From Neodothiora populina (taxonomy: Eukaryota): a stretch of 64,000 nt of DNA. Made by a program: the position numbers and the translations under genes. Shown here one piece after another: positions 1,112 through 8,462 of this stretch. Within the stretch, counting starts at the first letter, position 1; every line of letters starts with the position of its first letter. The DNA lies in NCBI RefSeq assembly GCF_041146345.1, contig NW_027191413.1, positions 2,294,001-2,358,000 on the forward strand, given 5' to 3'. A model generated the notes under the pieces. It did no database searches. It was not told the origin of the DNA and was given only the letters and a program-made list of their open reading frames with translations.

Positions 1112-4100
1112 ATGGGCCACGTCATCCGCACTCCAATCGTGCCATCAAACGCTCCGCCTCTGAAAGGTGCCGACAAGCAAATGCCGATGTTGGAAGATGG
1201 ATGGAATGACAAGCACTTCGGCTTTCCTCCAACACGCACTTGCAACCTTGTTCAAGATACGGAGGAGCTCAGTGACATTGAAGAAAGCGGTTTCCATAAT
1301 GCCGTTCCTACCAACCGACAACTTGTCCGACAATATCAGGCTCAGGGTCGACAGTATGAACGCTATGATCCGCGGAACGAGAGAGAACAGGATGCCATTG
1401 CGAAGAAGCTGGCGGCCCTCTTTGCTCAATGTGAAGGCTATCGCAATTACCGCAAACGTCAGCCGAAGGAGGGAAAGGGGAAGGAGGAACAGAAATGGCC
1501 AGATCATCTCGAGGAGGCCTTCTTGAGAGGTTTGTAATCTATGTCGAAGGTTGAGAGCTCCTCAACTGATTGTTTATCTCACAGCGCTTGTCCGTTGGCC
1601 ACCCGTCGGCCGCAAGAAACATTCTCCTCGCCCTGGTATGAAGGCAATGGGTCGCAATGAACTCATTTCTGACTACATACTGCAACTCACAGGCGAACTG
1701 AGGCATAGAAAACAGATATCTAGCCATATTCAGACGCTGAAAGAGTTCGTCCGTATCGAACCCGATAGTGAGACCTACCTTAGTCACCAGTATACTTTGT
1801 TAGACTGACAATATTGCTAGTCATGTGTTACTTGTCGAGTGCAGCATACAAGAAACATCCAAGTCGAGACAACGCAGCATTAGCCCGACGGCAGGCCTCA
1901 ACGTACCCTGTCACGTCACACCAGCTTTTCTCCCCTAACAGATTCCGATCAAGCAGACAAGCACACTCAGCTCTGCATGAACATCTGCATCTTATCCTTG
2001 ATGAGTTTCAGATGTACATACGTACACCAGCGCAGACTGAGCATAGCGGACCCGAGATTGTGCACACTTATACTAGCTATGAGCCGGTCAGTTTTGGTAA
2101 CGGTGACAACAATGTGGTACGATCGATCCAAATGAAAGACATATGTGAGCTCTGGCGTATCCACCCTTGCATTGCCATGCTCAAACCCATTCGTCCCCAA
2201 ACTGGCCGCACCTTGCACATTGATGCCACGCTCTCCCTCCATGATACTCAGCAAGTGTGCTCCAATCCGGATATCGAATTGGCTATCTCATTTGCTTTTC
2301 ATGGCCCCCCAGTGTCCACAAGTAGAGCAGCGACGGCGTCACACCCTCGGCCCAACACAAGCTTGCCTCGCCTCGCTTGTCGCACGAAAATTTACATCAA
2401 CGGCGAACTAGAAGACCCTCTCGACACTAGCACCGGCATGCCCGAGCCTGCCAGGTTTGACAAGGTAGATGTGACCACAGTTGACGACGTGAATCAGAGA
2501 GAGTCAAGGACCGAGTATGTAGTCACGAACTTCCGATCAGTGTTCTGGGCTGGGTTATTCTGGCGTCTTGCTCGTGATCAGCAGACTGCTGACATCCTTG
2601 CTTCTACACCGCTTGCGGAAGACGAGCATGAAACATTAGAAGCACGCCGGACTCAAGTCACCAGGATAAGAGAAGCGGTCGAGGAAGAAATCAACAGTGT
2701 GACTGCGGTCCAAGATATTGTTGCAAGTCTACAGCCCGACGGCGCGGACACAGAGACGGTACTCACGATTTTCTGGACGTTCCAGCTCGCGAAGGAGGGA
2801 GAAAGAGGGCGCACGACTTGCGATGAGATCGTCATTGCCCCTTCTGCTTCTACAATGTCTGGTGGCAAAAAGGGGCAAGGCCCAAAAGCGCGACGAGAGC
2901 AACACCGACGACTCGAGGCCGACCGGAACAGAGCGAAGTCTCAAGAAGTACCAAATCTATGGCAACAGTATGCTCAGCTTCCACAGAATCGGTCACAAAC
3001 AGTGTCACGTCATGGCTTCCACACTCACTGTGAGAACAATAACCCTTTTTCGTATATCTACGACCAGATCTCTTCGTTAGATCATGTCAACGTTGGCGCG
3101 GACGCTACTCTGAATCCTTTTGGTTTCTCATCCCAGGAAAGCTCAGAGAGCTACAGCGGCCAGTATTTGCAGCAGTATGCTAGTATCATGAAGTCTGCCT
3201 CGCCCAACGGTTGTTCCGTAGGAGGCTCTTCAGCTTTGGTGGCACTCAAATCACCAATGTTCTTCGATCAGCAGATCAATGAGGGAGCCGACAGTGACGC
3301 GGTAGTTGAGGACGTATGGCCCTGTGTAGGAGCTGTCCTACCTTATGCTGCCGTTCCTGCTCAGAACTATTACCAGTCATTCTTGGAAAGTATGCAGTAT
3401 CAGCGACCTAGTTTCTACTCCGATTCTTACTTCGACTCGGGCTATCGCGCTACTGCAGCAGGTAATGGAATCGACCTTCCTGGGGAGTCTAGCGTCTCTA
3501 TCACCTTATTTCCCGAACAGGATCAACACCAGGCTCAAAGTCAAGCAATTCCGACCTCGACATCATCTCAGAACCAAAGCCATGGCGGTTCGATCATGGC
3601 TACCAGTATGGAAGACTTCAAAGCTCTTACAGCCTCGGATGTTGATCGCCATCGGCACACCACTGATCCGTTGCTCCTTGAGCCGAACGTGCGTAGTACT
3701 TGGAACGACACTACAGACAAACATATTGTCAATCCACCGGGCTTTCAGATACTTCCTAGTCAACATGTCGCCCAAGGCATTACTTCTTGTATCAACCGCG
3801 AGCACGACATACACTCGAAGTATATAGGAGCTCACGGCTCAGACCAGTATGGCATCATGCAGCTGCAACAAGCACAGCAAGCTCCTCTCAAGCCTGGTCC
3901 CGGTCCTCATGACGATCAATACAAGGATGGACTTGTAATCCATCAGCCTCGCCCTCTTCGCATCAATGTGCCCCTGCGCAGCACTCACGGCCAAATCGAG
4001 CAGGTAAGCGAAGCAAGACGTTATCGACGTCAAGCCTTCGCTGGTGCCGCGAGTTGGAATACTGGCGCTGCCACCCTAGACGAGCAAGCTCGGCAATTTG

Positions 4101-4465
4101 ATGGTCGCACTGATGGCAACATGGAGGCCGACAATGAAGACGCAATACGAGGAGTCAGCATACAACATAGTCCCTGGGGGCTACATGGACAAGAAGAGCA
4201 CGAGCTGGATCACTTGTCATCGTCACGGCTTGAGGTGTCTCCTGAACTGGGCTTTGTCGCAACCACTACTGCTGCTGTTGCCGAGTCATATCGACTTCCT
4301 GCGGATGCTTTGGCATTGAGTGTCGTCTCGCCTGCTACTGCAGTCGACTCCCCGACAGTCGCAGACTATACACTGGCATATAGCCAGGATCATCACAGCT
4401 ATGATGCCAAACTCATCGTCGAGGAAGACAGTGTGATGGAAGATAATCCGATGGGAAACAATTAG
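1112..4465 (+). CDS. TEA/ATTS-domain transcription factor (AbaA/Tec1-like), 3 exons
   Basis: Spliced TEA domain QKWPDHLEEAF..ALVRWPPVGRKK..GRNELISDYI..RHRKQISSHIQTLK. GT-AG introns at 1530-1584 and 1768-1820 join three ORF pieces. Long low-complexity C-terminus. Confidence 0.85.
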
Positions 4466-4599: not shown

Positions 4600-5113
4600 A
4601 AGAAGAAATACTCAAAGATTAAGGAGCGAATTGTGGTACAGCGATGGGGCAGAAAAGTTATAAGATTGTCGGCTCTTGGGTTCAGTGGTCACGGGGCGAG
4701 TCGAGACTCATGTGGGAGTGAGGTGGACGATTGTAATGCTAAGTCTTGGTTCCTTGTTTTCTGTCCTTGCTTTTCGCCTGTCAAGTAATTTTGTACTTCA
4801 TTCGTTTATGGAGATGGCATTTCTCGACGTCATGGTAGAAGTTCAACCACGCAATCACAGTCTTTACCGCTTGTTTTGTAGCCTTTCCACCATCTCTTAG
4901 TCCGTACACAAGAGTCACACAAAGTTCCACAAAGATACCAGATTTACTTTTAGGTTTGATGTATATCTCTAACCATTTCCTTCCATCTACCGTCTAAGCC
5001 ACAGTCTACACAAGACCGACCAGTCCTTACTCGGAAAATGGAGACGGCCGGAGACAGCTATATTCTTCACGTGGACAGAGAGAAAGAAAGATCTACAACT
5101 TCGCCCGAGACAG

Positions 5114-6303
5114 TCACTGGCCCTCGGTCTTGGGCTGAACAAGACCCAGCTTCTCGGCTTGGTCCTTGTGCTCGTCCCAATCAGGTCGGGGCAGCTCGAT
5201 GCCCTCGGTCACTCTGCCGTAGGTGATGCCGCCCAATCTGGCCACTGGGCGAAGGATCTGTGTTGCACAATGTCAGCTCATGTCTCAAACATACAATTCC
5301 TACGAGAAGTGGATGAGAAGAAAGGGTGAGGAAAGAGAGCGACATACCGCGGGATCAACAATGTTCTTATCGGCATTAATAGCATCTTCGCGAGCCCAGA
5401 ACCTCACGCCCTCGAGAATAGCCAGGACATTCGTCTTCTTGCCAGGCGTCGCCTTGCTCTCGAACTCCTTGGTCTCCATCAACTTACACTCGACGGCGAA
5501 GACAGCCTCCTTGACTCTGGACGCCTTGACCTGCGAGCAAGGCGCGGGCGTCAGCCCCGTGAGCGCCCATTCGGAAATGCCGTAGGGCGCGTTGATGGAT
5601 GTCGCGTTGGCGGCTTCGAGGAAGTGCTCGCTGACGATGTTGATGACGCACTCGCCGGTCTCGAGAAGGTTCTTGAATGAGTCCTTGGCGTTGGCGACGC
5701 CGCCTGCGTGTGAAACGATGAAGATTGGTGGGTCGTGGTTTACGAGCTGGGTGTAGGAGTAGGGGGCCAGGTTGGAACTCTTGCCTGAGGGGTGGAGTCA
5801 GTGTCAAGCGGATCTGATGTCGCTTGCCCATATCTTGAAAATCACTCCGGGAGGTTGTCGCCACTTACCATCTTTCGAGGTTGTAGAGATGAACCCGATG
5901 GGGCGCGGGATGATGGTCGAGATGAGCAACTTGTAGTTGAACACGGCCGGCCTTCCCTCCTCGTAAGGGTCAATCTCAACCTGTCACGGTACCATATCAG
6001 CACTTCCCATCTCTGTACTAAACTCATATCAAGGAAAAGAAAACGCACGTGATCATATTTCTGACTCGCTCCTCCATCATTAGCACCATCGCCCAACTTC
6101 CAGTCCGGGTTTCGGGTCTTGTGAAACTCCCACTTCGTGTTCTCATTCCAGTCTGGCCTCGAGGCCTCGACCTTCTTGAAGTCTGGGTGCGGGTTGCGCT
6201 GGACGTGTTTCTCAGCGTCGAGGGCTGGCGGGGCCGCCGCCTCGTTGACCTTGTGCTCGGCTGCAGTGGGGTCCTGGGTGCGTTGTTCTTTGTCCGAACT
6301 CAT
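5114..6303 (-). CDS. Flavin reductase-like FMN-binding split-barrel protein (flavoprotein oxygenase family), 4 exons
   Basis: Spliced translation MSSDKEQ..RNPHPDFKKVEASRPDW..NYKLLISTIIPRPIGFISTTSKDG..NLAPYSY..HDPP..KDSFKNLLETGECVINIVSE..SEWALTGLTP..LRPVARLGGITYGRVTEGIELPRPDW. Three GT-AG introns (~5259-5346, ~5785-5868, ~5982-6047). Confidence 0.9.
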
Positions 6304-7113
6304 CTTTGCTCTTTGCAATGCGCTGTAGAAGAAATGCTGTGGGGGGTGAGCAGTGGATTATGTATGGATTTGTTTTCTATGATGACGAGGAAGTTGTATT
6401 TACCCTAGGGCATCCATGAGTTTCCGGCACTTCTTCAGCGATTGTATCCACCATATTTCGATACCCCACAGGAGGGTCCGTGAATTAGAGATAGAGATGT
6501 CGTAATTCCGCTCGCGGGGCACGTAAACTCCGCGTTATTACCAATTACCGGATACCTTCTTTGTTTCTCCGATTCCAATTCTTGAATCAGAATGACGATT
6601 GTACAGTACCTCTCTGCTTGACAAGGTTTGTTTGGAGCTGCGAACTATGTTCGTCAATAAGATAGTGTTTTCAGTGTGAGATTGGAGGAGCTGCCTGTGA
6701 ATTCCCATTTCGTCCTCTCTTCTCGGATCTATTTTCTGCGCGGCAGACTTCCCGAAGTCGGTCTGGTAAGGACTGTGACCGCAATAGATGATAATCGGGC
6801 TGTCAAATTCACAATGTTGCCTCTGTACTAGGTTCCAACCTCGATGGAGCGTACAGCAGCCATTGTTTATACACATACTGCTCTACTATTCTGTGAAGTT
6901 GACATTAGGAGGATGCCTTACTTCCAGGCGCCACTAGTACGTCACGGCATAAATATTTACAGTACCTTACCTTAGTACAGTGGAAAGGCGGGGTCCTTAT
7001 CTCTGCTTATACAGTGGCATATATTCAACATTCCATCTTCTATGTCGAGAGTATCGTATTGACTAGTAAACACTGCACCTACCTAGAGTGACTCTTTGTG
7101 ACCGTGCACGACA

Positions 7114-8462
7114 ATGTCTCACGACTACAAGACATACGCCCTGGGCGACTTTGAGCTCAAGAACGGAGAATTAATCCCCTCTGCGTACATAGCGTACAAG
7201 ACATTCGGCGACCCAAAATCGCCAGCTATAATCTATCCTACATGGTACAGTGGCGCGATATCAGACAACGAATGGCTCATCGGCGAGGATAAAACCCTCA
7301 ACCCAAGCGAGTACTTCATAATCATAACCGCTCTGTTCGGCAACGGTCAGTCCTCGTCTCCCTCCAACTTCCCAGACCTGAGGCCTTTTCCTAAAGTCCT
7401 CTTCTATGATAATGTTCATGCCCAGCACAGACTCGTCACCGAGCATTTGGGTATAAACCATGCGTTTGCTGTCTTGGGCTGGAGCATGGGCGCCGGTCAA
7501 ACATATCAGTGGGCGACCCAATACCCCGATTTCATGGACAAGACTGTGCCCTTCTGCGGGTCGGCCAAGACGTCCTTGCATAATCAGGTGTTCCTCGAAG
7601 GCGTCAAGGTCGCGCTAGTTGCGCCAAAAGGTGCTTCTTCAGGCGGCATCTGCAAAGGCGAAGTCCATTCATCTGGGTACAGGGCGTTCTCGGACGAAGA
7701 GCGTCAAGTGGGTCTTAAGGCTTTAGGTCGAGTTTATGCAGGTTGGGGCTTCAGTCAAGCGTTTTATCGGGACAGGTTGTATGAGAATGTGCTTGGGTAC
7801 AAGGATCTCGAGAGGTTTGTCCGGTCCAATCGGTGCTGTCGCTCCTTGCTGATTTGAAAAATGATAGCTTCATGGTCGAGTTTTGGGAGGCATGGGCACT
7901 TTCGAAAGGCAAGCGCAGTTATGCATGGTTGCAATTCCACTAGCCCGCTGACTGATGCGACCCGTAGACCCCGAGAACATGCTGTGTATGTTATACACGT
8001 GGCAGGCTGGAGACGTCTCAGCACAAGAACCATACAACGACGACTTCGAAGCGGCCATGAAAGGAATCAAGGCCAAGACCTTGGTTCTGCCCGGCAAGAC
8101 GGACTTATATTTCCCGTGAGTCATGCTTCAGCTCCTTCAGGTGCTCGTAATAACATGTGCTATCTGCAGTCCTGAAGACTCCGAGTGTGAGGTTCAATGC
8201 ATGAGGCCGGGTGTTGGCGTCTGCGAAGCATTCCCGTCGATATGGGGACACTGGGCTGGAGGTGTGTGTATTTACCGAAATAATTTGCTCATGTCACTGA
8301 TGAAGCTGTCATACAGGACCAGGACAAAGCACAGAAGATGTCAAATGGTTGGACAAGAAGCTCAAGGAGTTCTTTGCCGATACTAGTGTGGCGAGCTTGT
8401 CGCAGCTTATTGAGAAAGCAATCTGGAAGATGGATGGAGATGTGGCAAAACAAATCAAGTGA
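7114..8462 (+). CDS. Homoserine O-acetyltransferase (MetX)-like alpha/beta hydrolase, 5 exons
   Basis: AYKTFG, GNGQSSSPSN, nucleophile elbow GWSMG, acid TDLYFP, His IWGHWAG. Introns 7815-7867, 7909-7967 (GC-AG), 8116-8169 and 8262-8316 give one continuous frame. Confidence 0.88.

Follow-up and report, generated by a model that had tools for sequence, protein, structure and literature searches.

Introduction

Isoforms that gain a type 1 peroxisomal targeting signal (PTS1) through stop codon readthrough were reportedly described in Ustilago maydis by Freitag in 2012. Here we analyse a gene of Neodothiora populina that may give rise to such an isoform. It lies in a stretch of 64,000 nucleotides (nt), positions 2,294,001 to 2,358,000 of contig NW_027191413.1, which as a whole is called the window. 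The gene is on the minus strand, belongs to the PF01613 flavin-reductase-like family, and ends in a TGA that is followed in frame by six codons, LSRAKL, and a second stop.

Four proteins of U. maydis, Tpi1, Pgk1, Art1 and Rpe1, have readthrough-derived PTS1 isoforms (Ast 2013, table; Stiebler 2014, section 6). A UGA followed by CU is the core motif and is sufficient for efficient readthrough in this fungus (Stiebler 2014, section 6). The window gene resembles this set in its UGA-CU, in its short in-frame PTS1 extension, in the single mRNA predicted here to serve both a cytosolic and a peroxisomal form, and in that some orthologues bear the PTS1 directly, without readthrough. It differs in its protein family (a reductase-like protein that would use flavin mononucleotide (FMN), not an enzyme of glycolysis or the pentose phosphate pathway), in its occurrence in Dothideomycetes, in having CUG rather than CUA at positions +4 to +6, and in being a prediction from sequence.

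Human LDHB and MDH1 are likewise redox enzymes with a hidden PTS1 behind UGA CU (Schueren 2014 eLife; Hofhuis 2016 Open Biol; Stiebler 2014). They were found by asking that stop context and PTS1 both be conserved (Stiebler 2014); their UGA CUA (G) and PTS1 are conserved across mammals, whereas the tail described here is patchy and its tripeptide variable. In yeast IDP2 before its duplication (Yanagida 2015) a PTS1 is also hidden in the 3' untranslated region (UTR) of a cytosolic redox enzyme, but the stop is bypassed there by a +1 frameshift and not by in-frame readthrough. The hidden PTS1 of yeast IDP2/IDP3 can become genetically fixed, and the directly encoded tails of some relatives of the window gene, at locus L008 and in a clade of proteins ending in SQL, offer a parallel. 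Finally, the Beier-Grimm type II signals for readthrough, known from viruses, are two hexanucleotides, UGACUA and UGACGG (PMC13517186, section 2.1). Two orthologues of the window gene, L004 and L009, have one of these each. Unlike the viral cases, the window and the orthologue L007 have TGA CTG, and the window has a cellular gene, an extension of six codons and no predicted downstream structure. Our full-text literature search, which covered flavin reductase with fungal PTS1 and cryptic PTS1 readthrough in Pezizomycotina, returned nothing on this protein family. The case would represent a known mechanism in a new protein family.

The gene and the extension behind its stop codon

The gene consists of four exons, which join into a coding sequence (CDS) of 948 nt, or 315 codons, with one terminal stop. 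Its three introns (68, 84 and 90 nt) are all of the GT..AG type, and the joined CDS can be aligned with a full-length orthologue over residues 12 to 299. The extension is in the true frame of the gene, whose four-exon model is well supported. Among contigs from four sequencing runs that overlap the gene, those of one run, which may be the source of the window, are identical to it, and those of the other three span just 6106-6400 and do not bear on the 3' end. A scan for bacterial promoters and terminators, of no relevance to a fungal gene, gave no hit. The features are as follows.

6049..6303, minus strand: exon 1, with the ATG at 6303-6301; 85 codons for a hydrophilic N-terminal region that matches residues 12-72 of orthologue P0007 and has no Pfam match
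5869..5980, minus strand: exon 2, 112 nt, with GT..AG introns of 68 and 84 nt on either side
5348..5784, minus strand: exon 3, 437 nt, the core of the flavin-reductase-like split-barrel domain (PF01613)
5114-5257 including the stop (coding part 5117..5257), minus strand: exon 4, 47 codons, terminating in the conserved ..PKxxGQ tail
5114..5116, minus strand: first stop, TGA, the candidate leaky stop; TGA-C is found in 7 of 56 distinct orthologue ends
5111..5113, minus strand: CTG right after the stop, making TGA CT, the known core readthrough context
5096..5113, minus strand: in-frame extension LSRAKL (CTG TCT CGG GCG AAG TTG), with homologous extensions of 5-6 codons in L004, L007 and L009 and a directly encoded one in L008
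5096..5104, minus strand: the tripeptide AKL, a canonical PTS1, next to an Arg at -4 (5105-5107)
5093..5095, minus strand: second stop, TAG, which puts AKL at the extreme C-terminus

On the minus strand the CDS ends in ..ACC GAG GGC CAG (..TEGQ) and then TGA, and translation through the stop gives ..KTEGQ, the first stop, LSRAKL and the second stop, so that the extension reported in an earlier note on this DNA is exact in its codons and coordinates. TGA CTG has the UGA-CU of the readthrough-derived cryptic PTS1 genes of the Freitag/Stiebler type, and LSRAKL-TAG is, as in those genes, an in-frame extension closing in a PTS1 tripeptide directly before the next stop. The earlier note had called the stop leaky, which agrees with the published motif, and had presented UGA-CUG as a variant; it is not a new one, because TGA CT itself is the core motif (Stiebler 2014). 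The window hexanucleotide TGACTG is neither of the two Beier-Grimm type II motifs. The description of AKL as canonical holds for fungi, since AKL, SKL and ARL are the most frequent PTS1 tripeptides among 34 Pex5-dependent proteins of Histoplasma (PMC13343957, section 10). A protein search with the read-through C-terminus (TGA as Trp) recovered 23 proteins, none of which spans LSRAKL (at most 87% of the query is covered).

The stop could also be bypassed by adenosine-to-inosine (A-to-I) editing of the mRNA, turning UGA into UGG as in sexual-stage Sordariomycetes, or by alternative splicing. Fungal A-to-I editing prefers U before the edited A, and the G found here weighs against it; we know of no report of such editing in Dothideomycetes. 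Both routes have precedents, stop-loss editing in Fusarium (PMC13123824) and alternative splicing, by which fungal GAPDH and PGK acquire isoforms with a PTS1 (Ast 2013, table). The 24 nt concerned, however, contain no GT..AG pair that would remove the stop and keep the frame, and use of the AG just before TGA as an acceptor would fuse exon 3 straight to the stop. Alternative splicing across the stop was rejected on the basis of the sequence, and we consider bypass by editing or splicing extremely improbable. Fungi are without selenocysteine machinery (Stiebler 2014, section 6), which bears on any reading of the UGA as selenocysteine.

As an observation on a single sequence, LSRAKL is weak evidence, hardly more than chance would provide. 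Of 4338 inter-stop segments in the window, 3 (0.07%) end in [SA]KL and 15 (0.35%) in the strict PTS1 pattern [SAC][KRH][LM]. Of the 165 stop-to-stop open reading frames of at least 100 codons in the window, none has an extension of this sort. At the segment frequencies a large scan will meet such cases by chance. The six codons could then be ordinary 3' UTR, the similar tails of relatives coincidental, and the extended protein translational noise without function. The case therefore depends on the comparison of orthologues.

Stop context and extensions in orthologues

Orthologous DNA was obtained as 80 loci from one metagenome scan. The C-terminus is reached by 74 of them, which give 56 distinct 3' ends including that of the window; the closest relative, L001 (87-91% identical), ends before the last exon. 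The informative ends are listed with their stop context and extension.

Window: TGA CTG, extension LSRAKL
L004: TGA CTA, extension LSSTL
L007: TGA CTG, extension LRSAL
L009: TGA CGG, extension RPSML
L008: GAT, a sense codon, at the stop site of the others; ..SQDSRSAL directly encoded
L072: TGA CTG, extension LICRRLVCQSLLG, no PTS1-type end
L045, L047 and L048: TGA CGT and TGA CGC, extension RWC; TGA-C ends without a PTS1-type tail

The 51 distinct ends other than those of the window, L004, L007, L009 and L008 have no such tail. Tripeptides were counted as PTS1-type if they are among the 41 that Deng et al. 2022 (Table 1) give as PTS1 of plants; AKL, SAL, STL, SML and SQL belong to that set. 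An in-frame extension of 5-6 codons closing in such a tripeptide (AKL, SAL, STL or SML) is present at 4 of the 56 ends, those of the window, L004, L007 and L009. The same scan in the other two frames gives 0/56 and 1/56. Among 15749 background stop codons, 211 (1.34%) have such an extension, so that four or more among 56 ends have a probability of 0.0068. We also used a looser pattern, an extension of 3-12 residues ending in [SA]xL, which was set after the data had been seen. It is found at 4/56 ends in the true frame, 2/56 in frame +1 (..ADL and ..SDL) and 0/56 in frame +2, against a background of 92 of 15749 stops (0.58%).

The association of the extension with the stop context is a stronger signal than the number of extensions alone. 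All four carriers are among the seven ends with TGA-C, and none is found among the 49 other ends (Fisher p 9.5e-5; binomial probability of at least four of seven, 1.1e-6). The contexts of the carriers (CTG, CTA, CTG and CGG after TGA) are all four published leaky contexts, and L004 (TGACTA) and L009 (TGACGG) match the Beier-Grimm type II hexanucleotides exactly. A purely coincidental origin gains from the 52 of 56 ends that are without an extension, and from the two hits of the loose, post hoc pattern in one wrong frame; the confinement of all four carriers to the few TGA-C ends counts against it.

Three further peculiarities were observed at orthologous 3' ends. In two close relatives of the window (L019:2157 and L037:1535) an acidic, Gly-rich C-terminus is followed by 4 to 8 tandem TGA codons. 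At L017:3128-3160, ..GAG GGA CAG TAA is followed by a repeat of the same four codons and then by CGC TCG ACG, in which TCG ACG resembles the extension of L004; this may be a remnant of an extension that decayed after duplication. At L023:591-611, TGA ACG TGT CTC TCA CGA TAA encodes TCLSR, with the L-S-R that also begins LSRAKL, ended by TAA, which could reflect chance or a truncated relic.

Evolution of the extension as coding sequence

The five extensions, LSRAKL, DSRSAL, LRSAL, LSSTL and RPSML, differ in length by whole codons only. Each of them closes in Leu, for which the codons are TTG, CTC, TTA, CTG and TTG, four different ones in all. L007 and L008 have R-S-A-L in common, and their codons (CGT/CGC, TCG/TCG, GCG/GCT and TTA/TTG) differ by synonymous changes only. 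When the last four codons are compared pairwise, nucleotide identity is 0.50 at the first, 0.68 at the second and 0.40 at the third codon position; in the 30 nt past the final stop it is 0.31, and the similarity does not continue past the second stop.

Between carriers, no more than 3/16 to 8/18 of the four-fold positions in the last exon are identical, which suggests that neutral sites are close to saturated. Neutral sequence should accordingly be more or less randomised at this distance, and the frame, length and end residues are kept nonetheless. The sample is small, but the comparative signs agree with one another and suggest that the extension evolves as coding sequence. The same signs (whole-codon length changes, the varied Leu codons, the most conserved second codon position and the drop past the second stop) are difficult to reconcile with coincidence, as are the sense-codon variant L008 and the ten directly encoded SQL, AQL and SSL ends described below. 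We therefore regard a chance origin as unlikely.

Directly encoded tails and their distribution

Of the 120 proteins listed for a query consisting of the Tothia orthologue's C-terminal half, 10 end in [SA]xL at or just past the conserved Q. Six of these ten direct carriers have SQL, among them those of Tothia fuscella, Verruconis gallopava and Coniosporium apollinis; AQL closes three and SSL one. Two further ends in the same search are THL and GQL.

A tree of 123 rows was built with the eight tail columns of the alignment excluded. The tail is present in 15 of these rows, absent from 66 and of unknown state in 42, and at least six changes have to be assumed. Named NCBI proteins annotated as ending in GQ were scored as unknown, because their 3' flanks are not visible. 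A single clade of eight (Shimodaira-Hasegawa-like approximate likelihood ratio test, SH-aLRT, 93) is made up of the THL protein and seven of the direct carriers, and Tothia with P0097, Coniosporium, and L008 are each placed elsewhere. L007 and L009 fall in a Mycosphaerellales-like part of the tree, and the window and L004 within one well-supported clade of 10 rows. All carriers lie within the Dothideomycete part.

The direct forms at L008 and in the SQL clade permit the view that the ancestor encoded the tail directly and that the TGA is a nonsense change that switched it off, leaving the extension unread and decaying. The many lineages without an extension, in which the tail would be dispensable, are in keeping with this. 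However, four lineages near four-fold saturation all have TGA-C at the same codon, then an open frame of 5-6 codons, then Leu and a stop. A dead tail would not keep the TGA-C, the frame and the terminal Leu, and for this reason we hold a relic to be very unlikely.

Among distant representatives of the family, P0127 ends in SAL and P0191 in SEL. P0127 has 365 residues, falls in a separate 50% cluster and has a long, unrelated Lys/Glu-rich tail; its SAL is the same as in L007 and L008.

The conserved C-terminus

The ..(K/Q)PKxxGQ tail (window 5117-5140, minus strand) is strongly conserved in Dothideomycetes, Lecanoromycetes and Leotiomycetes. The last exon could be read to the protein end in 75 of the 120 homologues listed (907 in total). 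Of these 75 ends, 58 are ..GQ, 13 have another residue before Q, two are different, and two run on to SQL (Tothia fuscella) or AQL; 71/75 end in Q. The GQ tail is kept whatever the stop codon, which suggests that the free C-terminus has a function of its own, and any extension would mask the conserved GQ end.

We examined an AlphaFold2 model of the Tothia orthologue, made with a 44-row alignment. It has a mean predicted local distance difference test score (pLDDT) of 88 and a predicted template modelling score (pTM) of 0.83. No helix or strand is modelled past residue 280, and the last two residues have a mean pLDDT of 42. The model is compatible with an accessible C-terminus.

The extension might be translated and selected, and its [SA]-x-L might serve a role outside peroxisomes, in protein stability, as another C-terminal motif, or through an effect on the ..PKxxGQ tail. 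The extensions keep Ser/Ala at -3 and Leu at -1 but lack conservation of the basic residue that a canonical PTS1 has at -2, and the ..GQ tail is strongly conserved even where no extension follows. The literature consulted on PTS1 contains, in the parts used, no fungal validation of SAL, STL, SML, SQL or AQL. On the other side, a small residue at -3 with Leu at -1 is itself the PTS1 signature, and the AKL of the window is canonical in fungi. To our knowledge there is no other C-terminal [SA]xL system in fungi, which further weakens the proposal. AKL, SAL, STL, SML and SQL are all on the list of verified plant PTS1 (Deng et al. 2022). We judge a non-peroxisomal role of the extension to be improbable.

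Protein family and neighbouring open frames

The PF01613 profile matches exon 3 alone with 65.5 bits (E 7.7e-18), above the gathering score (cut-off 27), and NCBIfam has no family for the gene product. A protein search with exon 3 recovered 907 homologues in Dothideomycetes, Lecanoromycetes and Leotiomycetes, the best of which is 83% identical. The nearest solved structures are both bacterial, 3bpk (nitrilotriacetate monooxygenase component B; profile E-value 4e-30) and 4z85 (2-nitrobenzoate nitroreductase; 3.8e-21). The split-barrel flavin reductase domain is common to these and the fungal protein, and homology to them suggests FMN binding and NAD(P)H-dependent reductase activity for the gene product. 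In contrast to the bacterial proteins, the fungal ones have about 300 residues, bear an additional conserved region at the N-terminus and end in the ..PKxxGQ tail.

For the orthologue P0087 of Chaenotheca gracillima the source record gives the name 'Guanine nucleotide-binding protein alpha-2 subunit', apparently an annotation error. Two open frames neighbour the gene on the plus strand: 7102-7857, with 251 residues of an alpha/beta hydrolase fold (PF00561 at 7.3e-07), and 1784-4465, with 893 residues and no Pfam family.

Discussion

We consider it somewhat better than an even bet that the window gene gives rise, through readthrough, to a functional peroxisomal isoform with a PTS1. This rests on the sequence, on its fit to the published leaky context and on the comparative signature; from these we infer a useful level of readthrough, import by Pex5 and a role of the enzyme in peroxisomes. 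The main product of the gene would be an FMN-dependent reductase of the PF01613 split-barrel family, located in the cytosol. The UGA would end translation for most ribosomes, and the CU after it would weaken termination, so that in a small share of ribosomes a near-cognate tRNA would insert Trp, Arg or Cys. Six further codons would then be translated, giving ..GQ-X-LSRAKL. Pex5 would bind the new end, ..SRAKL (AKL with Arg at -4), and the flavoprotein would enter the peroxisomal matrix in folded form. One mRNA would in this way supply a major cytosolic and a minor peroxisomal form. In the case of LDHB, unextended subunits are reportedly carried into the peroxisome together with extended ones, and by analogy unextended subunits of an oligomer might ride in here as well.

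Several observations weigh against a readthrough-derived peroxisomal isoform. The PTS1-type tail is patchy, with the six or more changes confined to Dothideomycetes. It is absent in 51/51 tree rows outside the Dothideomycete part, and a PTS1-type extension is absent at every Lecanoromycete and Leotiomycete locus. The nearest relatives of the window with a known end are without the tail, L002, L003, L005 and L006 terminating in TAG or TAA and L019 and L037 having a different tail. In a set of 150 diverse family representatives, 30 have a readable end and 22 of the 30 have unrelated tails; the tails from this search neither add nor remove support. Only the window has a canonical fungal PTS1, its relatives having A, T, M, Q or S at -2, and for SAL, STL, SML and SQL the PTS1 validation is for plants only (Deng et al. 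2022, Table 1). Neither the [SA]xL pattern nor the plant list was chosen before the data had been seen, and the loose pattern is permissive, given its two hits among 56 ends in an out-of-frame control. Folding of the 100 nt from the stop onward revealed no stimulatory RNA structure beyond that of shuffled sequences (z +1.01), so that readthrough would have to depend on the short context by itself.

The dual targeting to cytosol and peroxisome that the earlier note had proposed is thus favoured by the sequence, the leaky context and the signs in orthologues, and is qualified by the majority of orthologues that lack the extension. Conservation among orthologues is likewise partial. It can be seen in four of the seven TGA-C ends as opposed to none of the 49 others, in one sense-codon form and in ten direct ends, but it does not extend to the other 52 of the 56 ends, to a canonical tripeptide in the relatives, or to a tree with fewer than six changes.

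A possible, though rather doubtful, extension of the readthrough reading is that in Dothideomycetes the enzyme family has gone back and forth repeatedly between two interchangeable means of delivering a small fraction to peroxisomes, a weak, directly encoded PTS1 (SQL, AQL, SSL or SAL) and a PTS1 behind a leaky UGA-C, the strongest being the AKL of the window. Stop codon and tripeptide strength would be balanced against each other, a rheostat for how much of the enzyme is peroxisomal, and the tree would record six or more gains, losses or conversions. Sister lineages in which the tail is hidden, direct or absent would offer a natural comparison for how this share is set.

A PTS1 behind a leaky stop is invisible to genome annotation and transcriptomics, and the enzyme content of fungal peroxisomes is therefore underestimated. 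If the readthrough-derived isoform is real, the UGA-CU rule would reach beyond the Ustilago and mammalian cases considered here, and an uncharacterised FMN reductase-like enzyme would be added to those known from peroxisomes of Dothideomycetes, the class of some crop pathogens and rock-inhabiting fungi.

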